Below, in pieces: positions 1-49,764 of a stretch of DNA of 64,000 bases. The position numbers and the translations under genes are program-made. Below the pieces are notes generated by a model. That model made no database searches, was not told the origin of the DNA, and saw only the letters and a list, made by a program, of their open reading frames with translations. Positions within the stretch are counted from its first letter, which is position 1, and every line of letters starts with the position of its first letter. The stretch lies in contig NC_087252.1 in the NCBI RefSeq assembly GCF_037042905.1, positions 124,001 through 188,000 on the forward strand, read 5' to 3'. The stretch is from Lytechinus pictus (taxonomy: Eukaryota).

Positions 1-223
1 AACGTTTTAATTTTGTTTTATCATCCCCGCAAATTTGACCCTAAACACGTAACTTTCCTAGCGAAATAGATACCCTTTTTCATTATTTTTGTGTTTTTGA
101 CACCCTTATCACGTTACGTACGTAACGTGCCCTATCTTGAAAAAGACATCCTTTTTACGTGTTTGTTTGGTCGCGCATGGTATCCACTCGTCAATGTAAG
201 TGGCCCCCCGGGATTGGTATGAG

Positions 224-406
224 CAGGGGCCGCGGAACGGTTTTCAAAGTGGGGGGGGGGGGACTGAGCCAAAAGTGGGGGGGGGGGGGCTGACAATGCA
301 AAAAATCACAACCGTATGGTCATTTTTACGTTTTTGTACATGGTTTTGGAAAAAAGTGGGGGGGGGGCTGAAGCCCCCCCAGCCCCCCCTGCTTCCGCGG
401 CCCCTG
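224..406 (+). mobile_element. MITE with CAGGGGCCGCGGAA TIRs and 5-bp TSD atgag
   Basis: TIRs and TSD read directly; second copy at 51285-51423. Confidence 0.85.
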
Positions 407-611
407 ATGAGTACTCTTTCAATTCTATATATATATAAGCAAACAGACCTAAAAAAAGGAACATGTAAAAAGACCCTTTTTAGGAAAAAGACGATAGGTA
501 TCTCAGTACGAGTGCGAAGCGCGAGCTTATTTTTGTTTAATAGGCCTATATTAAGATCTTAACAACGAATATTCTATGCACTTTTTGTTATAATTATCAT
601 GATGCATATTT

Positions 612-833
612 AAGTGGCCATAATCAAATAATGTACAAACTATTTTTTAAAGTTAATCATGATTTGGCAACCGCCTTGATGAAAATCTATAAACACTGAA
701 ATAGATTTTCATTAAGGCGGCTGCCAAATCATGATTGACTTCAGCGACATAAATTAAGCCTCACTTATAAGTTGTAGTAACCCTCTTCTGTGTATTCATA
801 TTCCGCAAATTTATTTGTACATTATGGCCACTT
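612..833. repeat. Hairpin/MITE-like inverted repeat
   Basis: Inner ~40-bp arms at 650-741; outer aagtggccataat / attatggccactt. Confidence 0.6.
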
Positions 834-1194
834 GTTTCTCTTGTACTTCAGATAGCTGAAGAAGGCCCATTTATGGCCGAAAGCTTGTGAGCGGAAGCGC
901 TTGTTCCGACTCTGGCACGCAAAACTCAATTCTGCTTTCAACAATGCAGGCTGATTTTCCATAATTTAGTTCCACCTCCCCAGGATGTTCACCCCCACCC
1001 CCCCCCCCCCTCTTACCACTTTATTTCCAGTCCACCTCGGATGTGCACCTCCTCATGCTCAAGCCAGCCTATATACGATTTCGTATAACTGTCATTTGGG
1101 TCTATTATGGCACGCTCATAGGGAAACAATTAAATATATGTTTCACTTGAAAAAAATATGTTTCTCTTCCACTAAACCATTTCACTCAAAGAAA

Positions 1195-1645
1195 TTTATA
1201 TTTCACTTATCAAAAAAATATGTTTCACTTTAAGAAAAAAAAATATATTTAACTTTTCAAAAAAATATATTTCACTTTTCAAAAAAAATATATTTCACTT
1301 TTCAAAAAAATATATTTCACTTTTCAAAAAAATATATTTCACTTTTCAAAAAAAATATATTTCACTTTTCAAAAAAATATATTTCACTTTTCAAAAAATA
1401 ATATATTTCACTTTTCAAAAAAATATATTTCACTTTTCAAAAAATATATATTTCACTTTTCAAAAAAATATATTTCACTTTTCAAAAAAAATATATTTCT
1501 CTTTTCAAAAAAATATATTTCACTTTTCCAAAAAAATATATTTCACTTTTGAAAAAAATATATTTCACTTTTCAAAAAAATATATTTCACTTTTCCAAAA
1601 AAATATATTTCACTTTTGAAAAAAATATATTTCACTTTTCAACAA
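1195..1645 (+). repeat. Subterminal tandem array of foldback left arm, ~22-24 bp unit aaaaaaatatatttcacttttc
   Basis: Directly visible; mirrored at 7805-8250. Confidence 0.95.
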
Positions 1646-2300
1646 TTTTTTTTTTAATTTTGAGAGAAAACAAATCCTTTCACTTTTGTTGGATAACACA
1701 TGCGGCTGCCGTATTCGACCGTACGTAGAATTCATCTATCTACCTACGTGATATATCTATCTATCTATCTATCTGTCTGTCTGTTTATCTATCTATCTCT
1801 CAAACTATTTATTTTTCTATCTATCTGTCTAATAATTATCTGATTAAATATGTCTGTCTATCTATCTACGAATCTATCTATCTGTCTGTCTGTCTCTTTA
1901 TCTATATATCTATCTAATATTTTTTAATATGTCTGTATATCTGTTTATTTATCAATCAATCAATCTATCTATCTATCTATCTTATGATTTATCTGTCTTT
2001 TTATCTATCTGCCTATTTATCTTTATCTATCTATCTTATGTCTATCTGTTCAAAATATGTATGTCTATCTGTATGTCTACCTTTCATCTTTCAATCTAAT
2101 ATCTATTGATCTGTTCAAATAATCATGTATGTTTATTTGACTGTTTATCTATTTAATATATATCTATTAAATATGTTTAATATGTTATTCTATCTGTCTA
2201 TCTATCAATAAATATATCGATCTATTTTCTCTCTATCTATACATCTATCCATCTATTTATCTATCTGTGTATGTACCTATGTATCTATCTGTCTCTGAAT

Positions 2301-4053
2301 CAGGGGCGGAAATCTCTCCCAAAAGGTAGGGGGGACACAGTGGCGGATCCAGCCTTCGCCAATAGGGGGGGGCGGAAATTTGTTTCAGCCATATTTTCCC
2401 CGATCGGCAGCTCGAAGAAGATTTTTGTTTGTTTCTTTGAAGGGGCAGTCCTCCTTAGTCACTTCTTAGCTTTATTCTTATAAATTAATATATAGTATCA
2501 TAATCCTTATTTATATGATGCGAGCGCGAAGCGCGAGCTAATTTTTTGGAAATTTTATGTATTTTTTCCTTAAATTTGAACATTCTGGGCAATGTTTGTT
2601 ATCCTGAAAAAGATGTGTATGCAACTTAATAATTACTACAAGCGCAAAGCGCGAGCAGAAATAAACTGATGGAAAAGATACCTGTTAAAGTAGCATTTAA
2701 CAATCAAATAATGCGAGCGAAGCGCGAGCTAATTTTTTTTTTGACATTTTCACCTAAAGAATTGAAACTCAAGCAGAATAGGTATATAAGTAAACAATTG
2801 ATGCGAGCGCGAAGCGCGAGCGTAAAATTTCGAGATTTAGTCCTATAATATTTACTGAACGAGACACTCTACTCATGTTTTGTAAATCATGAAAAGGATG
2901 AGTATTAATAATGCGAGCGCAAAGCGCGAGCAGAAAATTTTTATATACGTTTTGAACTGGTACCTGTTGAAAAGGTAACTGTTAAGGACTGCTTGCACTT
3001 AGCCATGAAGGCGTTACATATTTCAACAATCAATAAATGCGAGCACGAAGCGCAAGCTGAAAAAAAACGAGATTTAGACCTAAAAATGGGCCACTCCGTT
3101 CATGATGTACAAAAGGATGAGTAATATTGGGTCTTCCCACATTAATAATGCGAGCACAAAGCGCGAGCAGAAATATTTTGATATTGTGATCTGAAACTGG
3201 ATAATGATTTAAATAGAGAACAAGTTGAGTATCTGAATAAACATGCGCGCGCGTGTTTCATAAATTATTTAGACCTAGAATCTAAGCATTCTATATACAT
3301 GTACATCTTTAATCATGTAAATCATGAAACTTTGATACTCCGATCTGAAAAAAGAGTCAATTTCAGCTTTATATTTCAAGCACTTTGTAGAAAAATTGTA
3401 AGGCAAGCAGCAAATGTTAATATTCAGACCATAAAACTGACATTTTTACAGAGCACTTTTTAAAAATCAATTTGTAAATCACACAAAATAATGAAAGTTC
3501 GATTTCCAAGGTGAAATATGTTTTGTATATTGACTTCCAAACTTGACATTCGAGCTCCATATTGAACAAGATATGTAAATCACCTAACAGGCAATGCGAG
3601 CGCGAAGCGAGAGCTAAAATGTTATATATAGTGGCACGAAAGATTCTTTTTATTTTCCAAGTCTTCGCCTCATCTTGTTTTATGCACTCGTCGTCCTCTT
3701 CATTTTCTCCTCTCTTTTCCCTCTTTTATTCCTTCTTTCTTTCCGTTTTTTTTTCTTTTTTTTTGCTCCGCCAAGAGGGGGAGGGGGGGGGGCGGGCCCC
3801 TCGGCCCCCTGGTCCGCCTACGGGGACAAGGGGCGGGAACATTTGACAAGCAAAAAAAAAGGTTATCCCAAAAGTAAGGTCATCTTGTCCCAACTCGTCC
3901 CCAAATACATGTTTTATTTCGATTTAGAATGATGTATTTCTTACCATCATAAAAGACCAAAAATAGTAGGGGGGACATTTGATATTGTGTCCCCCCTACT
4001 ATTTTGAGTAGGGGGGACACGTCCCCCTGTCCCCCCTGGGATTTCCGCCCATG
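2301..4053. mobile_element. hAT-like non-autonomous element in foldback left arm
   Basis: TIRs caggggcggaaatc / gatttccgcccatg; 8-bp TSD ctctgaat (2293-2300, 4054-4061); empty site present in the right arm. Confidence 0.85.
2338..3822. mobile_element. Second hAT-like element nested inside 2301-4053, with repeated gcgagcgcgaagcgcgagc motifs
   Basis: Ends cagtggcggatcc / ggtccgcctacg; gggaca-type duplication on both sides. Confidence 0.7.
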
Positions 4054-5713
4054 CTCTGAATCTATGTTTAGATCAAATATATCATAATCACCGTTATCAT
4101 CATCATCATATTTGCCATCAATCATTATCAGCATGATCATCCTCCTCATCATCGTATATTTTTTCGTCAATCAATATCTATCTAATGTCTGTCTATCTAT
4201 CTAATACCTATTTATCTGTTATATATATATATATCTATCTATCAATATATATCTATCTTCTATTAATCTATCCACCTATCATTTATCCCTCCATCCATCC
4301 ATCTATTTATCTATCTTTCTTATATGTATCTGTTTAAATATGTATGTCTATCTGTCTGTCTATTTATCTTTCATACTTATATCCACTCATTTGTTTAAAT
4401 AATTATGTCTGTTTATCTATTTATCTACGACAGGCCACCTAATTCGTCCGCACGACGAATTAAAATCTAGTTTCACTTGTTACATTTTAAATCTGAGAGA
4501 AAACAAATCCTTTCACTTTTGTTGGATAACACATACGACGGCTGCCGTATTAGACCGTACGTAAAGTTCATTCCTCACGTAAAATCCATTCCTCTCGAAA
4601 AACATTTTACTCTTGTTGCAAAATTCATTTCACTCAATTGCAAAAAATACGTTCCTCTTTTTTCTCGGCCTGTAGGCGGCGCGCTTCATTGTTGGCGGGA
4701 AATAGAGATGGTTGCAAAATTTTCGCTGTGCTGAGGGGAGAAATCATGAAAGCGGTTGCAACTCACAAAATGACAAGGATATGGGGATATCAGCGAACGC
4801 AATTACGTCACTTTCCCACGTGCACGAGAATGCACCACGAGGTGGGCCCATGAACACAAAACGTGAAGTTTGATTTTATCACTGATTATGCACAATAGCC
4901 AGTGCAATCAGCCGTTGCATTCTGCCCTACGATCAATCACTAACCTTATCACGGTCTGGCTATACGTTTTGTAGGCATGGGGCATGAATACTTTATACAT
5001 ACACTATCTATAGAGCTGAATGGTCAAGGTAAGTGTTGAAATTTCCCTTTTCTCCATTCCGTCTGTCTTTTACTTCATTGACATACGATGATCGTAATGA
5101 TTGATTAAATGAAGCTTACAAAGAGCTACAATTCACTGGTCAACTCGCTTGTACCTGCACTGCAAAACCAAATTCTCTCCAGTTTGTCCGAGACATGAAT
5201 GGGGGGTTTTCCAATGCTACTCTCAGAACGGGCAGTACTTCACCGTCTTTTGAACAGACATGAAAAATGAGTATACGGGACTGAAGTTAAGTGATGACGT
5301 CATCGCTCAACCCTAAAAAGTTGGTGTTAGCCGAGAATGTCCACCGAAAGCGATGACGTCTTCACCCATTCAGTCATGTATGTTTACCGCCTATGTCTGG
5401 TTTGAAGAAGCACTGCCCGTGACAAAATGGTGAGAATTTGGTTTTGCAACGGAAGTACAAGCGAGTTGACCAGTGAAATGTAGCCTTTTGTAAGCTTCAT
5501 TTCATCAATCATCGCGATTATCGTATGTCAATGAAGTAAAAGACAGACGGAATGGAGAAAAGGGAAATTTCAACACCTTGTCCATTTAGCTCCGGAGATA
5601 GTGTAGTGCCATGCGTGGAGCTATTCATGCTTCATATCATGCCTACAAAACGTTAGTGATTGATCGTAGGGCAGAATGCAACAGCTGATTGCACTGGCTA
5701 TTGTGCATAATCA

Positions 5714-5876
5714 TACCTTGGTCACATTTGCTCTACGGCGGCCGTACGGCGAGTCGAAAACAGTCGTTTTATTCATTTTCATCCAAAGCACCTATATGTA
5801 GCTGGTACAATTTTTTTTTTAAACGGCTGGTTTCGACTCGCCGTACGGCCGCCGTAGAACAAATGTGACCAAGGTA
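5714..5876. mobile_element. PIF/Harbinger-like MITE in foldback right arm
   Basis: Long TIRs taccttggtcacatttg...gtacggcgagtcgaaa; 3-bp TSD tca; absent from the mirror site near 4885. Confidence 0.85.
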
Positions 5877-7292
5877 TCAGCAATAAAATCAAACTTTATG
5901 TTTTGTGTTCATGGGCCCACCTCGCGGTGTATTCTCAGGCACGCGTGGGAAAGTGTCGTAATTGGGTTCGCTGGTATCCCCATATCCTTGTCACTTTGTG
6001 TGTTGCAACCGGATTCATGATTTCTCCCCTCAGCACAGCGAAAATTTTGCAATCATCTCTGTTACCTCGTCCTGCCAACAATGATGTGCGCCGCCTACAG
6101 GCCGAAAAAAAAGAGGAACGTATTTTTTTGCAATTGAGTGAAATGAATTTTGCAACAAGAGTGAAATGTTTTACGTAGCGAGAGGAATGGATTTTTACGT
6201 GAGGAATGAATTTTACGTACAGTCTAATACGGCAGCCGCCGTCGTATGTGTTATCCAACAAAAGTGAAAGGATTTGTTTTCTCTCAGATTTAAAATGTAA
6301 CAAGTGAAAAAGAAACTAGATTTTAATTCGTCGTGCGGACGAATTAGGTGGTCGGTCGTAGATAAACAGACATAATTATTTATACAAATGAGTGGATATA
6401 AGTATGAAAGATAAATAGACAGACAGATAGACATACATATTTAAACAGATACGTATAAGAAAGATAGATAAATAGATAGATAGATCGATGGTTGGAGAGA
6501 TAAATGATAGGTGGATTGATCAATAGAAGATAGATATATATTAATAAAAGGGATTAATATATAGATAGATATAAACAGATAAATAGGTATTAGATAGATA
6601 GACAAATAGACATTAGATAGATATTGATTGATGATGATAAAAAAATACGATGAGGAGGATGATGCTGATGATTGATGGCAAATATGATGATGCTGATAAC
6701 GGTGATTATGATATTATATTTGATATACACATAGATTCAGAGACAGATAGATACATATATACATACGCAGATAGATAAACAGATGGATAGATATATAGAT
6801 AGAGAGAAAATAGATAAAAGCTAAGAAGTGACTAAGGAGGACTGCCCCTTCAAAGAAACAAACAAAAATCTTCTTCGAGCTGCCGATCGGGGAAAATATG
6901 GCTGAAACAAATTTCCGCCCCCCCCCCCCTATTGGCGAAGGCTGGATCCGCCCCTGTGTCCCCCTACCTTTTGGGAGAGATTTCCGCCCATTCAGAGACA
7001 GATAGATACATACGTACATACACAGATAGATAAATAGATGGATAGATGTATAGATAGAGAGAAAATAGATCGATATATTTATTGATAGATAGACAGATAT
7101 AGAATAACATATTTAACAGATTTAGTAGATAGATATTAAATAGATAAACAGACAAATAAACATACATGATTATTTGCACAGATCAATAGACATTAGATTG
7201 AAAGATAAAAGGTAGACATACAGATAGACATACATATTTTGAACAGATAGACTTAAGATAGATAGATAGATAGATATATAGATAGATAGCTG

Positions 7293-7340
<48 letters not shown>

Positions 7341-7804
7341 TATAGATAGATAGATATATAGATAAAGATAAATAGGCAGATAGATAGAAATTAAGACAGA
7401 TATACAGACATTTAAACAGCCGGATAAATCATTATATAGATAGATAGATTGAATGATAAATAAACAGATATAGACATATTAAAATAAATAAATAGATATT
7501 AGATAGATAGATAGATAGATAAAGAGACAGACAGATAGATAGATAGACAGACATATTTAAACAGATAATTGTTAGATAGATAGAAAAATAAATAGTTCGA
7601 GAGATAGATAGATAAATAGACAGACAGATAGATGGATAGATAGATAGATTTAAACAGATAGATATATATTAGGCAGAGAGATAGATAGATATTTCATGTA
7701 GGTAGATAGATAGATAGATGAATTTTACGTACGGTCTAATACGGCAGCCGCATGTGATATCCAACAAAAGTGAAAGGATTTGTTTTCTTTCAAAATTAAA
7801 ATGT

Positions 7805-8250
7805 AACAAGTGAAATTATTCTTTTCAAAAGTGAAACATATTTTTTTTTGAAAAGTGAAATATATTATTTTTTGAAAAGTGAAATATATTTTTTTGAAAA
7901 GTGAAATATATTTTTTTGAAAAGTGAAATATATTTTTTTGAAAAGTGAAATATATTTTTTTTGAAAAGTGAAATATATTTTTTTGAAAAGTGAAATATAT
8001 TTTTTTTGAAAAGTGAAATATATTTTTTGGAAAAGTGAAATATATTTTTTTTTGAAAAGTGAAATATATTTTTTTGAAAAGTGAAATATATTTTTATGAA
8101 AAGTGAAATATATTTTTTTTGAAAAGTGAAATATATTTTTTTGAAAAGTGAAATATATTTTTTTTATAAAAGTGAAATATATTTTTTTGAAAAGTGAAAT
8201 ATATTTTTTTTATAAAAGTGAAATATATTTTTTTGAAAAGTGAAATATAA
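7805..8250 (-). repeat. Subterminal tandem array of foldback right arm (gaaaagtgaaatatattttttt)
   Basis: Reverse complement of the 1195-1645 array. Confidence 0.95.
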
Positions 8251-8676
8251 ATTTCTTTGAGTGAAATGGTTTAGTAGAAGAGAAACATATTTTTTTCAAG
8301 TGAAATATATATATAATTGTTTCCCTATGGGCGTGCCATAGTCTATGCACGCAGACTAGGTAGGTCTGGCCTAGAATGTGAAGATTTATGACCATTTAGA
8401 GCCGGGATTTAGAGCTTACTTTGCTTGTGGAGCTGCCGTCCGATGGGGACCACACCCTGGTGGTGTGCCACGCGATCTGTCTTTTGATTGACACTGTTCG
8501 TGTCGTCACCACGAAAGCAAGAGACCCCCAAAACAGTCATTGAGATGGTTTTATCTCTCGATCCCATGCCCCCAATACTTCAAAGATGCACGTCGTCGTT
8601 ATAGTTTTCACGCATATTAGCCCTATAGTTTTCACGCATATTAGCCCTAATCAAATCACCTTCCTTATTGGCTTCA

Positions 8677-9260
8677 ATGGAGATGGTCCGGGCTGAAAGT
8701 GTTTATAGCTTAATAAATAGAGTAGAATTCACTGAGCAAAATGCCGAAAATTTCATCAAAAACGGATAACAGATAACAAAGTTATTGAATTTTAAAGTTA
8801 AGCAATATTTTGTGAAAACAGTCGTCATGAATATTCATTAGGTGGGCTGATGATGTCACATCCCCACTTGTTCTTTTGTATTTTATTATATGAAATTTGG
8901 TTTATTAAATTTTTTTCCTCCAAGAACTAGAAAATTTGGATTGACAACTGATTTAGTGCATTAGATATTTATTGCTGCAACTTATTTAATTATAAGGGAG
9001 ACATATTATTCACACCAGCATGAAATAAAGAAAAAAATATGATTTTATGTAATAACATAAGAAAACGGAAAGTGGAGATGTGACATCATCAGCCCACCTA
9101 ATGAATATTCATGACGACTGTTTTCATAAAATATTGCTAAACTTTAAACTTCACTAACTTTATCATTTGTTATCCGATTTTGATGAAATTTTCAGCATTT
9201 TGTTCAGTGAATCCTACTCTATGTATTAAGATATAAATATTTTCAGCCAGGACCATCCCT
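8677..9260. mobile_element. Palindromic Kolobok-like MITE
   Basis: gatggtccgggctgaaa / tttcagccaggaccatccct-ttaa; long internal inverted symmetry; left TTAA degenerate. Confidence 0.7.
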
Positions 9261-11316
9261 TTAAATCTGTTTAGATCGAATAATGTGATGAAAGCGGCCC
9301 TTTTCTGGCCTATCTCTAGAAAACCTATCAGTATTTTCGCAAGGTCGATCGTTGCAGGTAAAATTCTCGGGAAAAGGATGGAAGCAAATTACATGCTTTC
9401 GAGTTGTTTTAAAGTTTTTTTAGTTTAAAATTTGAAGTGACTCTCTTGGAAGTGGGTGTATCGGTTGTGTAGTCCCCCTACGACAACAAATCACGAGTGC
9501 GTGCGAACGACGCCAATCAATATGAATAAACATTAGCTAATTTGCATATGACTGATATCCACGCTCTGCAGAGCCAGTGCGTTGTACTCTTGTGTACTCA
9601 GTGACACGCTTATTGATCAGAAATGTTACCAAAACTTCTATAATATGTATTTAATTTTTAGTAAATATAGATTAATTTTTTCATATTAATGTATGTACAC
9701 CTATAGCATGCAGCATAGAATTCTAATTTGCACGAGTTATTTAAAAAATATGATATAGTAAAGTAGATTACGACGTGCGGTCACTGGTAAATAGTGCTTT
9801 AAAAAATTATATACATACTGATTTTGAACCCTCATGTATATCTTTGCGCAGAGGCAGTATCGTAGCCAATGAGGTTTATCCGAGGCGCGATTATTGCTAG
9901 TTGAAAACTTATCCCAATACCCCGCTCTGACGACGTGAAATACCGTCGGCTGTAGCAATTTTTCCAGATCTCCCAGGAGATCTCATAATCTAAATGAAAA
10001 GAAAGAATCATAAATAGAACACAACCTCCATAAATATATGGAGCATGGGCATGATGCCCTTTTATCTATGATAGATAAAAACAAAAGTTCCTTCTACCAT
10101 AATTCCTTATTTTTGTTTAGCTCTTAACTTCGATTTATTCACTGAATCAGAAATATCTAACCTACCGTTTTTGTTTGTTTAAATTCATTTATATTTCCTA
10201 TTGGATGTCTTCTTTCTCAGTTTAGACCATATTCAGTCATTCATTTATTAACAGACTCATTCATTATCATTTGTGTTTCAGATATTAGCCTTTTTTAAAA
10301 GGCCATTCTTCAGAAAATTAAATTTTCAAATTAATAGGCTTATTTCTTTCTCTAAAATAAGCCACAGTCAACACATTATGATGCCGATCACGTACATTAC
10401 ATAAATAAATATAGGCCTATTCACCATTTTTTTTTCAGCTAAACGATATTGAATTATTTCATTGATTGTTTTATTTAGTCAATTTCGTATCCGTTTTTAA
10501 TTTTATGTTTAATTTATTTATATTACAAAGGTAAAGGTCATGCATTATAGACGGTAGACTGAAACAAATATAAGTAGGCCTAAACTTTGAAAAATAAAAT
10601 GTGGTCTCACGCGGGTGAAGACTGAGCGTAGTTATCTAAAATGAATTAGGTATATAAAAACTATATAGGACTATACTGTGTCATGGCCTCGATCAAGGGG
10701 AGGCGGGGGCTTGGAAATTTATAGGCCTTAGTCAGCAAAATTGTTACTTAATTAGGGCCTATATACGTTAATGAGAAACAGAACTTATTTTAGAAGCAAT
10801 AGGAAAATCTCGAAAACCAAATCATTATGTCCTACAGAAACTGGTAGGACAGAAACTGGTAGGCCTACTCTTGAGGCCACAACAACAAAATAATTATAAT
10901 AATGATAATAATAATAAAAAATAATAATATAATAATATTGATAATAATAATAAAATAATAACACGAGGCGCGCACCTATAATTGAACCGTTATTCAGCAG
11001 GACTATAAATAATACTCTACATGTATGGTTATTGGCACACATTGGAGTATTTCCTTGAAAAACTAATATTTTGAAACATGATATGCCCCCAAAAGCAACT
11101 CCGCCTCATTATACATTAGGGGCGCCTGGGGCTCTAAAAAACGTGCAAAACTCTTTGGCCTTTTAGTGATCCACCAAGTCACTCATCAATCACATAAATA
11201 TTTAATAATCAGATATGCTCATAGAGATTGATTACGTATACTTGCAGTGTAGAGTGGATTAAACAAAAAACAGAATGATGAAATTTATGAGGAAGTCATG
11301 ATTTATTTATTAGGTG

Positions 11317-11377
11317 ATTGGGTTTGCGATGACGTGGATTTAGTAGCCCTTTTTACGTCCAATCGCAAACCGCCACT
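11317..11377 (+). promoter_or_regulatory. ER-stress promoter module of HYOU1: ATTGG, UPRE and ERSE-like element
   Basis: ATTGG 11317-11321; TGACGTGG 11330-11337; CCAAT-N9-CCACT 11359-11377 (ERSE consensus is CCAAT-N9-CCACG). Confidence 0.7.
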
Positions 11378-11429
11378 TTGCAATACGTAGAGGTCACTCA
11401 ATGACCTTTTTGTACACGTTCATCTAACA

Positions 11430-11535
11430 TGTGTTAGAGAAGAGAGCAAAAGAGAGGCACCGGCAATTCGGGAATAGACAACTTTGATGCGATTAGATCA
11501 TTTGAATTTACTTGAATCAAGGAATAAATTTCAGG
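11430..11535 (+). other. HYOU1: Probable non-coding first exon of HYOU1 (5' end approximate)
   Basis: Strong donor cagg|gtaagt at 11536, about 160 bp after the ERSE. The first coding exon opens with an acceptor 4 nt before the ATG, so an upstream exon is required. Confidence 0.5.
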
Positions 11536-13648
11536 GTAAGTGAATAAAGCCTGATTTAAGAGATCTGATATGAGTATGATGGAATTTGTTGGTGAGATTA
11601 TGTGTGTGTTGAGTTTAATTGAATCTTGCAATCTGTGGGGATCAGTCCCATACGTTCATTCTTTTGTACCCTAAACTAATGAACGACTCTTGTGCGTAAT
11701 TGCTTGTCTTCATTTTTGTGTGTCCTTGAATTTGAAAGTCTTAGTTAAAAAGTACTTATTTTTTATGAAAATTTAGAATCGTCCCATACGTATGGTGTTG
11801 TTTTAACATTATGCAAATGAGGAGTTTGATGACACCTGTTCTTGCATAAATTTGCATAATTTAACATTTGCTTTTCTGGAATTGGAAAAATAAACTTAAA
11901 ACTTAAACATAAAAAGTTAAAGTTTAAGTTTGACTCTTCTTTGGCTACAATCTAGGCCTAATAACAATCATTTGTACATTAAATCAAAATGAATTTTTGA
12001 CAGCCGATAGGAGTTAGGACATTGCCTTGGACTCCACCAAAATCATCAATTTCATATTTTGGTGGCCCGCAATTAAAAGCAAATTTGGTGGCCCTAAATA
12101 ATAGAAAACATTACATCAAAACTTTGGTAGCCAAGCAAACCAGGCCACCAACTGACCAAGTGTGGGATTTTACAGAATTTGGCTGCCCGTCTCTCATTTC
12201 TGGTTGCCCCGGGCCACTGTTAATAATAATATCGAGCCCTGTCATTCATTCCTTCCATTTAACAATCGACCCTTTTTAAAATATTTTTTCCAGTGTGAGT
12301 GTATGCTCTCTCTGTCTATGAAGGCAAAACTGAAAAATACCCCTTTCAACGCATTTTCTTTGGTCATGCATGTGTACAGTAATATTTGACTGCCCCCGCC
12401 CCCCCCCCCCCCACCCCGGGGGCAAAGCAGTACAGCTGCAGAGCTTGGAAAAATGTCACCAGCACTGATGAGATGCAGCGTCACTCTGGGGCGACACCGC
12501 TATTCCAACGCGTGTTGGAAAAGGCGACGCCAGACGGGTACGTTTTGGCCTTGAATTTCCAGCCCATTCCTCTAAATTACGGCCTAAATTTAGGTCTAAC
12601 TTATTCATTATATACTAATTGACTAATTATAATGTAAAATGGGTACTCACCGGTTCTTTTCTTTCCAAATTTTGTGTTTTCATCGCCTCTTCTGGCCAAC
12701 TCTTGCGGCGGCTGTTGTCGCCATAGGATCCTGTACATGCAAATCCAGGGCGAGTTGTTACATGACGCTCGCGAGTCTCTAGGCTTTATGGCCTTTAATC
12801 AAGGCGTTCATTTTGTTATAATTTTATAATGACGCTTAAATATCGAAATCAATGTAGACGAGTCTGTGCAGGGGCATAACAGAGATGTTATATTCATTGA
12901 AGTGGTTTATAAATCTTATCTCGGGGGTCTTTATGGACATTTATCAATTCTTTGTTCTGTGATATATTGTAATATAAATTATGAACGTCTGACAAAAAGA
13001 TAACCAACCGATCACCTGACCGATCAGCTGACCAGTACGTGAATCACATCGGAGTTGATCAGTCCTCACAGCGTTTGGAACGCTCACCAAGAATTCAATA
13101 AAAAAGACTGAAAATGTAACTTTAACCTCACTCCATTAACTTTTAAACATTGTAAAAGATTATTTACGATGTTAAGAACTAATTCATACCAAAATTTTTA
13201 CCATCCAATTTGTATTAAGGCGTACATTTGCCAAAGTCCTTGGGTGCAAATAGAAACGGCAATGTCTAACCGGTTTTATCACTTATGTTGCCTATGAGGT
13301 CCATACATGTAATGTTTGGACCTCATTGGTACTAGGAGTGTGCAGTGTTAATTGACTGGTGAATTGATGCTCTAAAAGTATCAGTCAGCATGACCTGTGC
13401 TCCAAAATCCAATCTCATTCAAGATTTCATTATCAGAATTTAAATAAAAAATGCCCTTTTTTCATTATGTTCATGATGCCAATATTGATGTCATCATATT
13501 GATCAGTTGAAATATTTCAAGGAGCTCCAGATCATGGACCCACTAAATGGTGATGACTCTGCAGGGGCAACTATCTCCATTTTTCTCCAAATATTTGAGG
13601 AAAAAAAATCCCAAAGTTTGTGAATTTCTCCACTTTCATTGATCTTAA

Positions 13649-14232
13649 AGGAGAATGAAACCCTTGAAACCAGCTGAATCCATATCAAAGAGAAAAATCA
13701 AAGAAACATATTGTTGAAAGTTTGAGGAAGATTGATTGAATAATAAGAAAGTTATGAGCATTCGAATATTGAGATCACTAGTGCCATGTAGATCCTCCCG
13801 ACGGCAATGCGACCAAGATCTGTGATATCACACACGTACAACTCCCTCATTACTTTAGTACTTATTTCACTTATATTCTCACTTTTATAGAGTCTATCAC
13901 AAGGTGAGGTGTTCTCTTTATGAGATGACAAGTACAGAGGTTCGTACAACATTATATCATTGATGAATCGTTTGTCATATGATTAGAATGAGCAAAAAGA
14001 GATGTTTTGGGGTATATTTTCAGTGTCCAAATGGGAGAGTTGTACGTGTGTGACATCACAGATCTTGGTCGCATTGCCAATGGGAGGATCTCCATAGCAT
14101 TAGTGATCTCGACATTCAAATGCTCATAACTCTTTTATTGCTAGTCCTATTTTACTCAAAGTTTTGTTGATCTTATTCTTTGATTTTTCTGCTTTCACAA
14201 AAGCTAACTTGCTCCAAGAGTTTCATTCTCCT
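13649..14232. mobile_element. Palindromic Kolobok-like MITE with TTAA TSD
   Basis: ttaa-aggagaatgaaac ... gtttcattctcct-ttaa. Confidence 0.8.
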
Positions 14233-14764
14233 TTAAAAACATGACCCACTGGTTAATAATTCCAAGTTCTTTATTATGAAAAAAGGATAGAAACCAAGTA
14301 TTTCATGTTTAATGCCCTTTTTTTATGGAAAGAACTTGGAATTTAATCCATGGATTGGTTCTTTATAAGATGATGGAAAATAACTTTGAATTCAATCAAT
14401 GGATCAGTTCTTATGATTATGAATAAAGGATGTAAACTGTAAAGTGCAAACTTTAGTTTCATTTCAAATTATTTAGAAATAAAATAAGAAACGCATTGTT
14501 ATTTGGAATGGTCGTGTTGTTTCATGGAGGCTTATTTTTTATCATTGAGAAACAGTGAAAATCGATAAAAGTCTTCAACAAAATTGGTATGATAGTCCAT
14601 TTTAACAAAATTTGGTCACAAACATAGGCAAATTTTAATAAATGAGTTTATGGAAATGCTAAAATATTGATCATTGTAACATCTTTGTGGAAAATTTATC
14701 CATGATGGAAATGAAAAAAGAAATTAAGGCAACATACTTCTTTCTCGGGCAGTCTGACACTGTT

Positions 14765-15429: not shown

Positions 15430-18275
15430 GTAAGTATCGATAATAATATTAACTTTCACATATATGAATGATGTCTCTATAAAGTACTATACCCCTGTCA
15501 AAGATAAATTTTCCTGAATTTAAAAATGTTTTGCAATCAGAGCAGCTTATAAGAATTTATTTTGGACTCATAATTTGAATCAGTTATGCTATATATTTTT
15601 ATAAATTGTCTGTTTCAATTAAATTCAATGATTCATTTAATCAGATCAGATTTCTCATGAAAGTGGAATGCAGTTACATAGTACATGTACAATAAGAAGA
15701 CCCAATAATAATGATAAGAACACAATCTGAAGGCCTGGTCACACTGCCCAAACTTTGTTGGAGCGTTCCTTGAACGGTAGGGAGAGGGGGCCAAATTTCG
15801 AAAACATGGGCGTTGCCTTAGCGGTGCACCGCTGAAGTAGGCGTTGCTTTAGCGTAGGTTTAACAGTAGCGAGTGTTGGTTTAGCCGTGACGCGAGCATT
15901 GATAGAGTGGCGTTAAGCGCATACGGGCGTTGGCTCGGCGGGGGTTTAAAGTTGGTTTAGTAGCGTACTGCTTTTGACCATGGAGCTGAACGGATCTCTT
16001 TGATGGAAGTTCCAATAGATTCCAAATGGGCTCCTGGTCCATTTCTCCCCGTATTTAAATAGCCAAATGCTGGTCCCGCTCCAACACCTCCATACCAACG
16101 CCAAACCAAAGTTCAGCACCGCAATGGATCGCTACTTCAATGCCCGACATCATTCCAGCAATCCCGTGTCCGCTCGTAAAACGCTTATAACCGCTCCAAC
16201 AAAGTTTGTGCGACGTTTAATCACCGCCGGGGCAAAGCTGGCGAAGCAGCGATGGTCCAGCGTTCAAGATTTCTGCATTAGCCTAGCGGACCCAAGCGTC
16301 CATGAACTTGCGTCTAGCAGTGCCAAACTTTGACCAGGCTTTGTTGGAGCAGTGGTAAACTTTGCTGGAACGGAAAATTGCCTGCTCCTCACCTCTCGCA
16401 ATATTTTGTGCAGCTCAAACTTTCGAAGTGGTAGGAGGGACTATCAGATGTGGCCGAGCATATATATGGCGTTGCATGGACAGGGGCCAACTTCTGTTAA
16501 ACAGTGGTGAACGGTAACGAGCAGTGATGATTTTTATTCACCGCTCCTGGAATGCTCCAGCAAAGTTCTGGGGGTGTGACCAGGCCTTGTCTATGAGGAA
16601 AAGTAACCTCATCACAGTCCTACAACAACTTTGTCTCAAATCTTTGTTGGTTTTATCTTTCAACAGAGAGAGTCGGAGGAAAACACCTGTTACAATCGCT
16701 ATTAGGGATGATGAGATGCTTTATGGAGACCCAGCATTATCTGTGGTAAGTGAAAATTCAACCTGATTTTAAAAAGTTTAATAGAAAAGGTCTTAAGGTC
16801 AATTTCTTTAGATCAGGATGAATATGGACCACAAGTTACAATCTATTACTATCTACAATGTTTGTAATATTTGTTGTAACATGATCAGAACACTTTGTGC
16901 TGTGTTTTTCTTATAACAAAAGTTTGGGAAATGAATAAAGTGTGATAAAAGAACAGAAATTTCATAGTTGAATTTCAAAATGTAAATTAAGTACACATGT
17001 ATGCCCTTCCAAGCTATGCAGTAAGAATTTCTTGAATTATTTTATAAGAAGTAAAACAAGGGGCAAATAATAGGAGGAAAGATTCGTCAAAGCTGTATAA
17101 AAACATGTAATATACAATCTTGGTTTATAATACATTATGCTGCATGCTAACAAGATAGAAAACAGTTTGACAGATTTTATAGTCCTTATGTACATGTAGT
17201 ATACTGTACTGTCCTATCAATAGTATCAAGTATGACATGCATGTGGAGAAAATTATAATTCCTAATATATCAGTGAGCATTTTGCTTTTAAAGTGAAAAC
17301 TATTTCCCCTGTTGTGAGCAAACAGCACAAATCTAATGAATAAAACATGATCATTATACTCCCCTGTATCACTATGGTAGTGTCATTGCCGTGACTCTAG
17401 AAGATTTAAAGTGCCATCTAATCTAATTGAAGAGATGACAAGATATTTTATCTCACTAGATGTATACCTACATGTAGTAGCATTATATACAAATGGCAAG
17501 ACAGGTTATATTGCCTTGCCAATTCACATGTAATGCCTTAAGAATTATGTTGAAATGGTAAGATGCGTTATATTGTCAAAGCAGATTAAATTCCTTATTA
17601 TTTTGACATGGTGAGATATGTTATCTTGTGAGACCTGTTGACTTTAATAAAAGAGATGTTGACATGGTATAGCAACAACGTGTCAATATTTTACTTTTTA
17701 TTAGTCGACTTGGCAAGATAAAATTGCCTTGTTGACATATTATTAAGGCTTTTAAGCTGGCGGGCAGGACTGAATTTCTAGCCATCTTCTTGTCAATACA
17801 GTCAATTAGATGGTACTTTAAAGCTTCTGTAAGAGACTGAGTGGCTGTTTTCATGGGTAATTTGATGAGAGCAAGAGTTCAGCATCTCCTGCCTGAGGCA
17901 TGCACTCCATAATAACAGATTATGATTCATTGTTGTAGCCAGCCATGCCTTGATGATTTTCAGAATATGTTTAGATTATCTTAATATGGAGGAAGGGGCG
18001 TGTTGACTTATACTTTATGATTGCTAGCAAATCATGTTATTTTGTTAGCGGTGGTGATGATTATGGATGATCATTTTCTGATAGTGATGAAAGTTTTAAT
18101 GGTTTGACTTACATGTAGAATGGTGGTGATTTTTAGCTTAGTCTTGGGGGTTATGATGATGATATCGATGGTGGTTGTGGTGATGATGATTACATGGTCA
18201 CGATGGTGATGATAATGGTAGTGATGATGGTGATAAAGGTGATGATGATGGTGATGATGATGATGGTGATGATGG

Positions 18276-18307
<32 letters not shown>

Positions 18308-18566
18308 GTGATGATGGTGATGATGATGATGATGAAGATGATGATGATGATGATGGTGATGATGGTGATGATGATGATGATGAAGATGATGATGATGATG
18401 ATGATGATGATGGTGATGAAGGTGATGATGGTGATGGTGGTGATGATGATGATGATGGCGATGATGGTGATGATGATGGCGATGATGGTGATGATAATGA
18501 TGATGAAGATGATGATGATTGTGATGAAGGTGATGATGATGATGGTGATGAAGGTGATGATGATGG

Positions 18567-18598
<32 letters not shown>

Positions 18599-21500
18599 GT
18601 GATATGATGATGATGAAGATGATGATGATGATGATGGTGATGAAGGTGATGATGGTGATGGTGGTGATGATGGTGATGAAGGTGATGATAATGATGATGA
18701 AGATGATGGTGATGATGGTGATGATGATGATGATGGTGATGAAGGTGATGATGATGGTGATGATGATGATGATGATGATGATGGTGATGATGGTGATGAT
18801 GATGATGATGAAGATGATGATAATGATGATGATGGTGATGAAGGTGATGATGGTGATGGTGGTGATGATGATGATGATGATGGCGATGATGGTGATGATA
18901 ATGATGATGAAGATGATGATGATGATGATGGTGATGAAGGTGATGATGGTGATGATGGCGATGATGGTGATGATGATGATGATGGTAATAATAATGAAAT
19001 AAATTGTTTAGGGTTTGTTATTACATGGTAAATGGCAATGAGGAGAAGAAGCTGGATGGCTATGATGGTGGTGATTGTCTTGAACACAATATTGATGTCA
19101 GTAGTGATCATAAGTAAACTCAAAAGTAAACTGTCATATGAGGACTGAGATTTGACAATAATTTTCAATCTTGAATATTAACCATGGAGCTCCGTAATAC
19201 ATGTAGCTCCATGATTAAACATTGCCTGAAGATGTGCCTAAGCAATGCTTCCTATCCTTGATTGTTTTTTTATTATTATATGCCCGTCTCGACGGGACGT
19301 ATTAAGGTTTCACGCTCAGTGTCCGTCCGTCTGTCTGTCTGTCCGTCCATCCGTTAACTTTTCCTTGTAAACGCGATAACTTCAGTTTAACTTAACCTAG
19401 GCTCATATAATTTGGTGTGTATGATACTAGCATGGATCCCAGGAAGCCTGTAGATTTTGAGGTCAAAAGGTCAAAGGTCAAGGTCACAGGGACATGTTTT
19501 CATCTTACCCTTCTGAAGTCTTTGTAAACACGATAACTTTACTTTAACTTAACCTAGGCTCATATAATTTGGTGTGTATGATATTAGCATAGATCCCAGG
19601 AATTCTATTGATTTTGAGGTCAGACAGTCAAAGGTGAAATCGCCACCTTCCACTTTTCTTGCTTGACCAATAACTCCATTTTCTGCTTTACAGGCAGGCA
19701 TATTATGTGCTCGCCTTAGCGACACTCTTGTTTTAATATATATTTTATAAATTTATTTTTTTTAATGCTGTATTTTTTCATCTTTCTTTTGTTGCTAATT
19801 TAGCACTCTGCATAGTAGGAAAGTACATAGATTGGTGCATTATAAATCATATCTATTATTATTATCATCATAAATAATGATACACAGGATTATAACATAA
19901 AGTTGCTAAACACATTATTAAAATTTATTGATATCATGAACACAGGGAGTAAGGTATCCTAAAAGTAACTATTACTACCTCCAAGATCTTCTGACGAAAC
20001 CTATAGAGAACCCTCTGGTCAAGTTACATCAGAAGAGATTTCCATTCTATGAACTTGGACAAGATGAAGACAGAGGTAAGTAATTATTTTTTATCTTTGA
20101 CCTGGGCCCGTTTCATAAAGGACTTGCAACTGTTGTAACTTTGCCATAATGGCAACTACCATGGCAACATGGCTCAGCAGCCAATCAGAATCAAGGTTAC
20201 CATGGTAGTTGCCATAAATACTTTGCCATAATGGCAACTACCATGGCAACATGGCTCAGCAGCCAATCAGAATCAAGGTTACCATGGTAGTTGCCATAAA
20301 TAATGGCAAAGTTACAACAGTTGTAACTCTTTATGAAACGGGATCGCGGTCTTTATAGGGATATAAATGTGAACAGCATAGGTCAAATCTGCTATACATG
20401 TATAGCATGCACATCAACAGAACTGTCTTTTTTCCAAGCACATTGTGATGTCATTCAGGTACACGTAGTGTATGATTTATGTTTTTGTATTCATGTCTTG
20501 TCATCCTTTGTTTATTAAATTACTTTATGTTGCTCACATTTTGGTATAAAATTTGTAGACAAGGACAAGGTTATGCATTAAATGGTTCTGTGACATTTGC
20601 TCTGGCGACAATTGCTCCAGAAATATGCATGTTAAGCCAAAATAAAAACTAACCTCCAAAAGTAAATAAACCTTAATCTTTATCTTTACATATATCAAAC
20701 CAAAAACTCTTTGGCCCGAATTCACAAAGGTGGTTTTTAAAACCCACGGTTGAATCCATGGTTTATGCAGATTTCCTGTATAAATTAGGCTTAATTACAC
20801 GTATCGGGTGCGTGTATAAAAAAAATGTCCAATGCTGATGCGCGCTTTTGTCACAGTGCGCCTAATTGACGCCTGTTACCATGATAAGATACGCAATTTT
20901 ATTCATGAGTCCACTGTTGTCTGTTTGAAGAGTGGACTCATAAATAAAAACTACGGCAACAGGCGTCAATTTGGCGCACTGTGACAACAGCGCGCATCAG
21001 CATTGGACATTTTTTAATATACGTGGTAAAATAAGCGTAATTTTGAATTCGGGCCTTTTACAATGCAAACTCTAACCCTATGCCCTCAGAGACATTGCCA
21101 GGAACACATGTTGCAGGAGTCATGTCACCGTATAATACTATTATGTTATAGTTTCTTTTGTCATCTCATCTTGTTGTTTCTTTTTGTAGGTTTTTCATCA
21201 AGAATAACAAACATTGTGTTTTGCTGTGTTGTGTTACAAAACGTTTTTACATAGTGTTATTTCTCCTTTTTTTCTAGGCACTGTGTACTTTAAGCACAAT
21301 GATGATGTCATCTTTCATCCAGAGGAGCTTCTTGCCATTGCCCTCAATAATTCAAGACAAAGTGCTGAAGGATTTGCTGGTAAATTCAAGTTCATTGTTA
21401 ATTTTGGTGTTGGCATTGGGCTGATATACATCAGCAGAGCTCCAAGAGTAAAATAGGACTGGGCCAGTATTCTATTCGATACCTCAGCCAGAATTTCAAG

Positions 21501-24500
21501 TAGTTTACTCAGTATTTTGCTAAAGTAAAATACTTATCCATCTTTGGTATTCAATCATATTTTTTGGCTCCATAATTTGCTTAAATCAAAGTCAGCAACC
21601 TTTTTAGGAAATGTCTCACTTGGTGTATTTCAAGTTCAATGTTGAAATTCCTGTGTTAATGCCAGGCCAACTTTTCATTTAGCATAGCACCAAAATGAAA
21701 ATAAGATTGGTCTTTGGGAACAGTCTCACTATGTTTTGAGCCATTGTTTTATTTGATTGGGACCATTTTTTTTACGTACTATGGAAACCGTGATTGTGAT
21801 TAGCTGCTGAGCCCTGTTCCAATGTACTACCATAATGCCAAAGTTACCAGTTTTTCTTATGAAACTGTTGGCTAACAGATAACAAAAATGATAATTCTCT
21901 TCTCTAATCTCTCTTACTCAACTTTCAATTTTCCACTGTAACCATTAGCTTCTCCAAATAAAGCAGTCCAACACTACTCAATTAATTAATTCATAATTTG
22001 TAAAAAGAATTTTAAGTTAAACAAATAGAACACTGTTTGAGGTAACCAGAGGGGGGGGGGGGGGGTGTTTCATAAAATGACTTGTCAGATGTTTTATCTG
22101 ACAGTTATAATATAAACTCAAGTTCTCAGCCAATCAAATCAATGAAAGTGGTCAGATCTGACAACTTGATCGGCAAAAAATTTTGATGAAATGCTCTACT
22201 GGTGTTATGTATTTTTTTCCCACACAGAGCAAATTATTAAAGATGCAGTGATCACATTACCTGCATTCTTCAACCAAGCAGAGAGGAGAGCCGTTCTTTA
22301 CGCTGCTGAACTAGCCGGTCTAAGGGTACTCCAGTTAATGAATGACAATACAGCAGGTAAATCAACTGTTTACATGCTAATGTTGCAAAGGCACTAGTTG
22401 CAATTCTGCACATTTGCACGTTGAATTCAACAATTGTAATAATTAGTTTTCTCCCTTACCTTCATGTGAGAGAAGCTTCTTGGGTAACATCAACATATAT
22501 ATATGTTGTAATGATTATCAGTCAGTATCAATGGTATATAATTGAAATTCTAGATTCAGAGCAAATATCATAAAAACAATTGCCAGTATTGATTCAATGT
22601 GGAAGGCCCTCGGGAAAGTTTATTTGAATAGATCAAAAATCAAACAAGTTTAATGCTGATTTTTATTCATATCCAGTTTATCTTTGGGTATGTACTGCCA
22701 GTGGAGGGCAAATTTCTATGATTAAGTTTATAGATCAATAAATGAATGTGTCAGAATCTACATGTAAATCTCTGAAAATTTTATTGAATATCTGATGTAA
22801 ATTACCCTGGTTATCGGATCTTTGCTCCCTGCATACAAGTATGCACTTTCTTTACTCCCTGGGGGCATTCCAACAAGAGGTTTACAGTATGTGGAAATTG
22901 ACAGAACCGTTCCACATTTTTTCGCTCAAAGTAACAACTTATGTTTTCTCCCAATGGGAGCCTAATTTTCCACAAGCTCTGCTTTTTATTTAGGCTCCTC
23001 ACTTTTATGACATTTTGAAGTGTACCTTGTGTTATATACTTATGTTAGATAGTTAATTTGATACACTGTGTATGAATACGTTTGTTATGTATATTTGTTT
23101 TAACCCTGATTCTCCCGGGGGGGGGGCCATAATGGCCCCCCCCCTTGACAATTTTCGCTATATATCTGCTGCGCAAAATTTTTGACCTCGCCGCTCACTG
23201 ACTTTTTACTTTCAAGTCTCGCGCAAATTTTGAGACCAAATTTGGGACGCCCGGGTACGCGGTTACGACATTACGCAACATTATGTAAGTGCATGTCAGA
23301 CCCAAAATTGCTCATAAACGTGATTTCATGTACAAATCCAATGCAAATTGTGTATTAAGCCAAAATTCATAAATGTATCATTATTTCTACTTTTACTGAT
23401 TAAACTTAATTAATTTTGCCTTGTTTATGATCAGAATTAAGTCTGGAACGATTTCCATCGAAAAAACAATAAAAAACAAAGAAATACATAAGAAATTAAA
23501 AAAACAATAAAATACATAAGAAATCGGTCTTGGTACCAGAATTTTTTCCATTCACAATTGTTAGGAATGCTATAAAGAATATTTACACCAAAAAATAGCA
23601 TTCTAGGAGCTTTATTTAGTGAATCAGAGCAAAAAGTATGATTTCATGAATAAATTAGCATAATTTATTCATATAAAATAAAAATATATGAATTATGTGA
23701 AATTTACCAATGCAACTGTGTAGATTACGTCATTCTCTACCATCATGCAAATTTTCGTTGTGATCGCGCAATCCGCGGCTGAGATCTTAAGGGGGGCCAT
23801 AATGGCCCCCCCCCCCCCCCCCCCCCCGGGAATGACAAGAATAAAAATAACCCGGGAGATTTAGGGTTAAAAGTGGAATAACTAAACGGTCAAACCAATG
23901 AAGGGAGTAGGTTATACTGATTACATGTAGAAGTGCTTTAGAAACACAAGTTTTAAAACCTTAAATTTACCCCCTCTTCAGTTGCTCTGAACTATGGTGC
24001 ATTTCGTCGCAGCGACTTCAACTCCACACCCCAGAACATCTTATTCTATGACATGGGAGCGGGAAGCACTACAGCTACCATCGTCAGTTATCAGCTGGTT
24101 AAGACTAAGGAGAGAGGTATACAAGAAACTAATCCACAGCTAGCCATCAAAGGAGTTGGGTAAGTTGGTCTATTATTCTAATTTATTACAGTATTATATG
24201 AATGACATGAAGCTTTAAAGGTGTTCATGATAGACCCAGTGTTGAAGCTGACTTGAAGCCTGCCATATTTCTAATGGGTGGTGCTCTAGTATCGAATCAG
24301 TGTTCGGTTATTTGAATCATCTTGCACATGCGCACAGATTCAATGTAATGTACGTCTGTACTAGCATTATGTCAAACCTAATAGGCCTACTGATCTTTTT
24401 ATGTCCATATGTTGTTATCAGGTTTGATCGTACCCTTGGTGGTTTGGAATGGGAGATCAGACTTCAGAAACACCTTGCTGAGATGTTCAACAAACAAGGA

Positions 24501-36500: not shown

Positions 36501-36797
36501 GTCATTTAACCGCGCACAGCGCGGAAGCAACATTCATATACATTTAGAGCAAGAGTGAATAGTTTCTCTTTTGAGAAAAAAGAAAAAGAAAAACCCACAA
36601 AGCTACCTTTCTTCCCTTTCCTCCCTTCGCTTTTCCTTTTCTCCTCTCTTTTTCCCTTTTTTTTTTTCTTTTTGGGGACGTTTTTTGGGGGCGACCGCCC
36701 CCACCGCACCCCCCCCCCCCCCGGCTACGCGCCTGGATGATAGTAATGATGATGATGATGATGATGATGATGATAGTGATGATGATGGTGGTGATGG

Positions 36798-36846
<49 letters not shown>

Positions 36847-36875
36847 AGTGATGATGATGATGATGGTGGTGATGG

Positions 36876-36906
<31 letters not shown>

Positions 36907-48815: not shown

Positions 48816-49764
48816 TTTTTTGTCTCACCTGCATAGCAGAGTGAGACTATAGGCGCCGCTTTTCCGACGGCGGCGGCGGCGGCGTCAACACCAAATCTTA
48901 ACCTGAGGTTAAGTTTTTGAAATGACAGCATAACTTAGAAAGTATATGGACCTAGTTCATGAAACTTGGCCATAAGGTTAATCAAGTATTACTGAACATC
49001 CTGCCTGAGTTTCATGTCACATGACCAAGGTCAAAGGTCATTTAGGGTCAGTGAACTTAGACCATGTTGGGGGAATCAACATCAAAATCTTAACCTAAGG
49101 TTAAGTTTTTGAAATGTCATCATAACTTAGAAAATATATGGACCTAGTTCATGAAACTTATACATAAGGTTAATCAAGTATCACTGAACATCCTGCATGA
49201 GTTTCACGTCACATGACCAAGGTCAAAGGTCATTTAGGGTCAATGAACTTTGGCCGAATTGGGGGTATCTGTTGAATTACCATCATAACTTTGAAAGTTT
49301 ATGGATCTGATTCATGAAACTTGGACATAATAGTAATCAAGTATTACTGAACATCCTGTGCAAGTTTCAGGTCACATGATCAAGGTCATTTAGGGTCAAT
49401 GAACTTTGGCCAAATTGGGGTATTTGTTGAATTACAGCCATAAATTTGAAAGTGTGTTGGTCTAGTTCATAAAACTTGGACATAAGAGTAATCAAGTATC
49501 ACTGAACATCCTGTGCGAGTTTCAGGTCACATGATCAAGGTCAAAGGTCATGTAAGGTCAAAGAACTTTGGCCACGTTGGGGGTATTTGTTGAATTGCCA
49601 TCATATCTCTATAAGTGTATTGGTCTAGTTCATAAAACGTGGAAATACGAGTAACCAAGTATCACTGAACATCTTGTGCGAGTTATAGTAGTTTTTAAAA
49701 TCAGCACTGCTGCTATATTGAATCGCGTGATGCAGGTGAGACGGCCAGAGGCATTCCACTTGTT
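48816..49764 (+). mobile_element. Helentron-associated (HINE-like) element with ~160-190-bp internal tandem repeats
   Basis: Subterminal IR gtctcacctgcat / atgcaggtgagac, (ggc)n, repeats containing aggtcaaaggtca, ends cacttgtt, T-run insertion site. Confidence 0.85.

Follow-up and report, generated by a model that had tools for sequence, protein, structure and literature searches.

We analyzed a 64,000-nucleotide stretch of the Lytechinus pictus genome (contig NC_087252.1, positions 124,001 to 188,000 of the forward strand; hereafter the window, numbered from its first letter) and found at positions 1106–8340 what is probably a non-autonomous foldback element with IS3EU-type ends, which would be moved in trans and whose arms would have been inflated by copying. 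Its mirror arms, its 6-bp target-site duplication (TSD) and the lack of a detected transposase bear out a first-pass annotation, made from the sequence alone, that had described a non-autonomous foldback DNA transposon at this place. The same annotation had assigned the element to an unclassified family. This part was probably wrong, as the ends TATGG..CCATA together with the 6-bp TSD fit the published IS3EU/GingerRoot group.

The mirror termini begin with TATGGCACGC at 1106 (+) and 8340 (−), directly inside the two copies of GTCTAT, and the mirror symmetry stops exactly at this duplication. A 6-bp match at a fixed place has a chance probability of 3.8 × 10⁻⁴; the exact TSD proposed earlier was upheld, with its copies at 1100–1105 and 8341–8346. 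Complete IS3EU families are described as always having TA..TA termini and usually 6-bp TSDs, with GingerRoot and IS3EU forming one lineage (PMC10045372). In the GingerRoot survey, 72 of 77 copies showed TA..TA ends, a 6-bp TSD and terminal inverted repeats (TIRs) of 100–150 bp (PMC6839031), and the ends of fungal IS3EU elements are given as TAYGG..CCRTA (PMC12730594). TATGG at 1106 (+) and 8340 (−) agrees with TAYGG at five of five positions, and the single insertion seen here carries the 6-bp duplication GTCTAT. From this structure we infer, and do not regard as proven, that the element is of the IS3EU type, because no transposase was found and one TSD was seen. If the termini were instead TGG..CCA flanked by a TA duplication, the 6-bp match would stay unexplained, and we rejected this reading.

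The termini had also been described as mini-palindromes. Such stems are present at both ends (5 bp at the right, 4 bp at the left), but the 25 nt at the left end fold with only −0.2 kcal/mol. The terminus had no further occurrence in the window, its pattern gave 0 matches in metagenome contigs and genome contigs, and no look-alike for 1–9840, the inner domain or the terminus was found among the other DNA windows compared. Two 17-mer terminus matches in viral contigs extended over only 17–18 nt and were set aside as fortuitous. Immediately beyond the right end, the target site at 8341–8352 resembles the element terminus, with GCACGC following TAT in both; this likeness possibly reflects a target preference or chance.

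The element showed no sign of coding capacity, in line with the earlier statement that it lacks a transposase open reading frame. Its inner domain contains 37 stop-to-stop frames of at least 35 amino acids, and the four longest gave no Pfam match above the curated cut-off; a match of one inner-domain frame to Agro_virD5 was sub-threshold (15.4 bits against a cut-off of 25) and was discarded. Five short IS3EU core motifs gave 0 matches when all six reading frames of the window were searched, a weak test run without a positive control. Rfam yielded no match at E 0.5 within 900–9000, and no tRNA was found within 1–12000.

Next, we considered how far the two arms mirror each other. Self-BLAST resolved them into three collinear inverted blocks (1106–2473/6817–8340, 4054–4886/5876–6742 and 4883–5188/5421–5713), and segment-wise alignment gave 2,461 paired columns per arm, such that about 4.9 of the 7.2 kb is paired. 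A large inverted repeat does span 1106–8340, as annotated, but the wording "fully palindromic" was overstated because about 2 kb is one-sided (1,583 bp left-only; 166 + 255 bp right-only). Without one-sided insertions the left arm measures 2,442 bp and the right arm 2,570 bp (2,825 minus a 255-bp patch), close to the predicted 2.5 kb each, and the symmetry continues to a spacer of 41 nt at 5309–5349, where about 40 nt had been estimated. The innermost paired block reached a score of 34, whereas 2000 shuffles gave at most 28; a self-palindromic 12-mer makes up part of this block, and without this 12-mer the score was reached in 5 of 2000 shuffles. The 12-mer flanks the spacer at 5294–5305 and 5353–5364, with one mismatch on the right, and holds TGACGTCA, which we take to be CRE-like.

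Divergence between the arms was uneven. The outer segments differed by 70 substitutions in 1,624 columns (4.3%) and the inner domain by 44 in 499 (8.8%), with 9 in the 64 columns adjoining the center. The inner domain is thus more diverged than the outer segments (p = 0.0002, or 0.048 once CpG-type changes are excluded), which would fit, with modest support, more recent copying near the ends. Arm-to-arm substitutions showed no strong one-way excess (A/G 12, G/A 20, T/C 13, C/T 15).

From its end inward, each arm consists of a 91-bp terminal segment, a 22-bp array, a segment that we call X, a (CTAT)n unit, a second X, a subterminal-like stretch and the inner domain (Table 1). An outer tandem array had been annotated in each arm and is present in both, but its consensus unit is 22 bp rather than about 23 bp. 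The start of the inner domain resembled the outer subterminal segment with a local score of 39 that 0 of 2000 shuffles reached (mirror copy at 6100–6215). The heptamer TTTCACT occurs in the left arm 24 times on the + strand and 0 times on the − strand, and in the right arm 0 times on the + strand and 28 times on the − strand, and is thereby oriented inward in each arm; none lies in the Helitron-like units, and the remaining 55.7 kb on the right-hand side contain 12. By analogy with the internal repeats of Galileo, TTTCACT is a putative transposase-binding motif, and the left terminal segment is likely to be a transposase-binding end.

Table 1 Features of the foldback element, in window coordinates
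Feature	Position	Strand	Detail
Whole foldback element	1106–8340	.	7,235 bp; termini TATGG..CCATA
Target duplication GTCTAT, left copy	1100–1105	+	chance match 3.8 × 10⁻⁴
Target duplication GTCTAT, right copy	8341–8346	+	alignment of a run X2 contig (flank-level depth) begins exactly at 8341 and runs outward
Left terminal segment with TTTCACT motifs	1106–1196	+	5 substitutions in 115 columns against 8226–8340
Right terminal segment	8250–8340	−	repetitive in 3 of 4 public runs examined
Left outer tandem array	1197–1642	+	22-bp unit, 19.8 copies
Right outer tandem array	7808–8249	−	22-bp unit, 19.5 copies
Segment X, outer copy, ~100 bp	1637–1734	+	start approximate; mirror 7719–7818
Segment X, inner copy	4471–4570	+	mirror about 6207–6315
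Helitron-like (CTAT)n unit, left arm	1735–4470	+	starts TC after A; 9-bp hairpin; ends CTAG before T; 975 bp without nested MITEs
Helitron-like (CTAT)n unit, right arm	6316–7718	−	both ends as in the left-arm unit
MITE 1 (miniature inverted-repeat transposable element)	2301–4053	.	exact 8-bp duplication CTCTGAAT at 2293–2300 and 4054–4061; complete only in left arm
MITE 2, inside MITE 1	2338–3822	.	imperfect target duplication; six GCGAGC-type motif copies
MITE 3, 163 bp	5714–5876	.	TA..TA ends; 3-bp duplication TCA; right arm only, empty site in left arm
255-bp patch, right arm	6816–7070	−	copies left-arm 2220–2470; stops within the nested MITEs
Older right-arm copy of left 2220–2300	6735–6815	−	ends in the MITE 1 empty site (CTCTGAAT once)
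Left inner domain	4571–5308	+	initial 90 bp similar to the outer subterminal segment
Right inner domain	5350–6206	−	
Central spacer, unpaired, 41 nt	5309–5349	.	

The (CTAT)n-rich domain, likewise noted earlier, is found in both arms, but with Helitron ends and a copy of X on both sides it is unlikely to be a native module and is probably a nested Helitron-type element. It shows a 5′-TC after A, a 3′-CTRR before T and a hairpin near the 3′ end. When both strands of the 64 kb were searched for a hairpin followed by CTRR and T, only two places emerged, both at X boundaries of the element; 0.45 such signatures are expected per window (20 shuffles, with a looser 7-bp stem), and the stem of the unit is 9 bp. 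The 3′ hairpin gave 0 matches in metagenome contigs. Helitrons are not known to leave a target duplication, whereas here the 100-bp host segment X stands on both sides. We therefore term the unit Helitron-like only; later recombination could explain the repeated X. One might speculate that two insertions lying 100 bp from each other recombined and so duplicated X, or that a circle carrying X recombined. The outer X copies share indels with each other, as do the inner ones; therefore, the duplication of X predates the most recent homogenization of the arms. Without the (CTAT)n unit and one X, the core arm measures about 1.4 kb. The end features of the unit are those given for Helitrons in PMC4344730, and the lepidopteran Hel-2 of that paper, a non-autonomous Helitron which carries a tetranucleotide repeat, resembles the nested unit in its 5′-TC, 3′-CTAG, 3′ stem-loop, flanking A and T and tetranucleotide body; it differs from our unit, whose ends are known from one element, in that a 100-bp direct duplication flanks the latter.

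We then examined the insertions that break the symmetry. MITEs 1 and 2 are whole only in the left arm and MITE 3 only in the right, each facing an empty site in the opposite arm. MITE 1 is hAT-like by its 8-bp duplication, as hAT elements are described with 8-bp TSDs and TIRs of 10–25 bp (PMC3942097). In the right arm, the 255-bp patch ends about 170 bp within the MITEs. The tract that it forms part of (2193–2470/6820–7097) differs between the arms by 2 substitutions in 274 columns, an identity of 99.3% against 95.7% elsewhere (Fisher p = 0.0017 against the 70 in 1,624 columns of the other outer segments). The 81-mer present once in the left arm and twice in the right differs at 1 position between the left arm and the new patch, at 5 between the left arm and the old copy, and at 5 between the new and old copies. 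The simplest reading of these sequences would be an aborted arm-to-arm copy running from left to right. That MITE 1 was once whole in both arms and that the right copy was then deleted and locally filled in was rejected because the inner right copy differs from its neighbor at 5 of 81 positions and the neighbor from the left arm at 1.

Public sequencing runs were compared for the right-end region only (8250–9840), in 4 of the 17 runs listed. Contig depths were summed over contigs, a quantity that gives no copy number and was used solely as a sign of a repeated terminus. In the terminal bin (8304–8357, which takes in the final 37 bp of the element), three organism A runs gave summed depths of 2,620, 2,435 and 11,733, and the flank had depths of 0–140 in 17 bins outside the neighboring MITE; the terminus is thus repeated in three of the four runs. 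In run X2, the alignment of an 853-nt contig with a depth of 39 covers 8341–8524, and at least 218 nt on the element side of this contig do not match the terminus, making it a probable empty site. The best runs contained 0.15 of the window words, with many shared differences from the window in the flank, and probably come from a relative or a distant population; for this reason, we took coverage gaps in these runs as no evidence.

Together, these observations suggest a history for the element. A transposase encoded elsewhere would bind TATGG at the ends as well as the inward-facing TTTCACT motifs, and would insert the unit with a 6-bp staggered cut. To judge from its ends, the Helitron-type (CTAT)n element would have entered the core arm and come to lie in both arms between copies of X. 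Thereafter, a broken right arm may have primed on the left, copied about 280 bp into the MITEs, been released and rejoined, the break, priming and rejoining leaving the 255-bp patch and an 81-bp duplication that we see in the sequence. The arms are thus likely to have grown by taking in mobile elements and by copying between arms during DNA repair. An element of this kind would maintain itself by parasitizing the transposase.

Several observations weigh against this account. One insertion and one TSD represent the element, neither its four longest inner frames (Pfam) nor the window (IS3EU motifs) yielded a transposase, and TA termini with a 6-bp TSD carry little information, since hAT6 elements and Polintons also make 6-bp TSDs. 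The patch might have been copied from a different member of the family rather than from the left arm. The (CTAT)n unit has no second copy elsewhere in the window (self-BLAST) or in JGI metagenomes, and to our knowledge a plain Helitron insertion does not leave a 100-bp flanking duplication. Run X11 (organism B) had a depth of 0 at the terminal bin, and the run X2 contig is known by its aligned part only, whereas an empty site would require the rest to equal the left flank. Furthermore, the TAYGG rule is stated for fungal, not animal, families (PMC12730594), none of the 14 IS3EU entries in the supplementary alignment of PMC10045372 is labelled as sea urchin among the 30 of 34 places listed there, and the TIRs of 100–150 bp described for GingerRoot (PMC6839031) are far shorter than the arms of about 2.5 kb found here.

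Other transposases were therefore weighed against an IS3EU-type one. hATx elements produce 6-bp TSDs, and hAT elements often have TA termini and subterminal repeats; a hAT6 or hATx transposase that moves the element, with the history of arm copying unchanged, would agree with the 6-bp duplication found here. Although hAT6 families with 6-bp TSDs are placed in an animal hAT lineage (PMC12730594), hAT elements are described with 10–25-bp TIRs and 8-bp TSDs (PMC3942097), and the ends match the IS3EU motif TAYGG at all five positions, while the likeness to hAT6 is one of description, without terminal sequences. We therefore consider a hAT transposase unlikely. The same low weight goes to the view, proposed in the first-pass annotation, that the ends belong to an undescribed transposase group; their match to IS3EU would then be a coincidence. 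This view draws on the undetected transposase, on the lack of a DNA relative in the collections searched (the two 17-mer matches did not extend) and on the lack of a publication on IS3EU foldbacks in the open literature, but the element has both structural hallmarks of a named superfamily, and Repbase and Dfam lay outside the search. A derivative of a Polinton/Maverick would likewise be non-autonomous, and both the 6-bp TSD and the long TIRs would suit it. Polinton termini are AG, however, and those of the element are TA; no Polinton protein remnant was seen by Pfam in the four frames compared. Despite the 6-bp TSDs and long TIRs of Polintons and their presence in sea urchins (PMC3014272), this origin is very improbable.

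Two further explanations dispense with transposition. A palindrome formed in place by inverted duplication would have no history of movement as a unit, and GTCTAT would stand on both sides by chance. A single copy seen in full would suit such an origin, but the low chance probability of the duplication, a probable empty site that begins at the duplication and a divergence of 4–9% between the arms that is greater inside than outside make it improbable. An assembly fold-back artefact, already regarded as unlikely in the first-pass annotation, is extremely improbable, because the arms diverge by 4–9% and are set apart by three one-sided insertions, of which two face a matching empty site in the opposite arm. 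An element moved in trans by an IS3EU-type transposase thus remains our preferred reading.

The surroundings of the element contain further repeats and genes. A perfect 24-bp tandem duplication (8600–8649) lies 260 bp outside the right end. Next to it, a palindromic MITE at 8682–9264 is of very high abundance, with a summed depth of 10⁵–10⁶ in organism A; its loose ends with TTAA-type flanks suggest a type that we presume to be Kolobok-like. A similar layout was seen at 13645–14236. A 0.95-kb repeat with internal repeats occurs at 48816–49764 and 60717–61681, 97% identical, in opposite orientation and 11 kb apart; its outer flanks share no duplication, and the two copies are probably separate insertions. 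An ankyrin-repeat frame (61645–62349, −) ends within one of these copies. The genes of the window are intron-split: exons of an Hsp70-family gene, presumably HYOU1-like, extend over about 24250–39460 (+) with Pfam HSP70 in two frames, and an exon of the CST telomere-capping gene Ten1 lies at 47034–47354 (Pfam Ten1_2, E = 6 × 10⁻³⁰). Long (GAT)n-type microsatellite tracts at 18071–19177, 31248–31629 and 36544–37075 form low-complexity open frames.

Finally, we compared the element with known foldback systems. Drosophila FB and sea urchin TU elements have long modular TIRs with outer tandem repeats, and we set them beside the element by description. Its own outer tandem-repeat and inner domains, target duplication and lack of detected coding capacity correspond to the foldback layout of long TIRs with outer tandem repeats and an inner domain outlined in PMC4079207, where most foldbacks are said to seem Mutator and sea urchin foldbacks are cited. 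Tetris of D. virilis shares the modular long TIRs and the absence of coding capacity but has 8–10-bp TSDs and is assigned to Mutator (PMC4079207), whereas our element has a 6-bp TSD and only 41 nt in its middle. Galileo of D. willistoni and D. mojavensis, a member of the P superfamily, is alike in having two-TIR copies without a transposase and TIRs extended by tandem repeats and other elements. Such copies reach 9,021 bp, the TIRs then measuring 4.2 and 4.7 kb, and insertions in one TIR have come to be shared by both (PMC4168063); repair from the other TIR has been proposed for the extension (PMC3573991). Galileo differs in its 7–8-bp TSD and P-type transposase (PMC4168063), and the accounts in PMC4168063 and PMC3573991, as far as they go, describe no interrupted copying tract with an empty site. 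By TSD length, our element is outside the Galileo and Mutator-type foldback families.

IS3EU/GingerRoot elements share with it the TA..TA termini (TAYGG..CCRTA in fungal families), the 6-bp duplication and TIRs longer than 30 bp (PMC10045372, PMC6839031, PMC12730594 and PMC11934779). They differ from the present element, which has no detected transposase and arms of about 2.5 kb meeting at a 41-nt spacer; the descriptions drawn on here include no foldback member. We found no publication linking IS3EU with foldback structure in the open literature (Repbase, Dfam and subscription papers were outside the search), and a 2025 paper calls the structure and function of IS3EU largely unexplored (PMC11934779). 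More tentatively, sea urchins may harbor a class of giant IS3EU-driven foldbacks whose arms act as a ratchet, copying insertions across by repair, with this copy frozen halfway. If so, classic sea urchin foldbacks would trace partly to IS3EU, and half-copied tracts would allow the length and direction of repair tracts between inverted repeats to be measured in an animal germ line. The element offers a readable record of how mirror arms are built, with an insertion intact on one side, its empty site on the opposite side and a copy left half-finished; since such arm copying was already proposed for Galileo, it illustrates this process and overturns nothing. It would, however, tie the foldback design to IS3EU, whereas published foldbacks are mostly assigned to Mutator, with the P-type Galileo as an exception.

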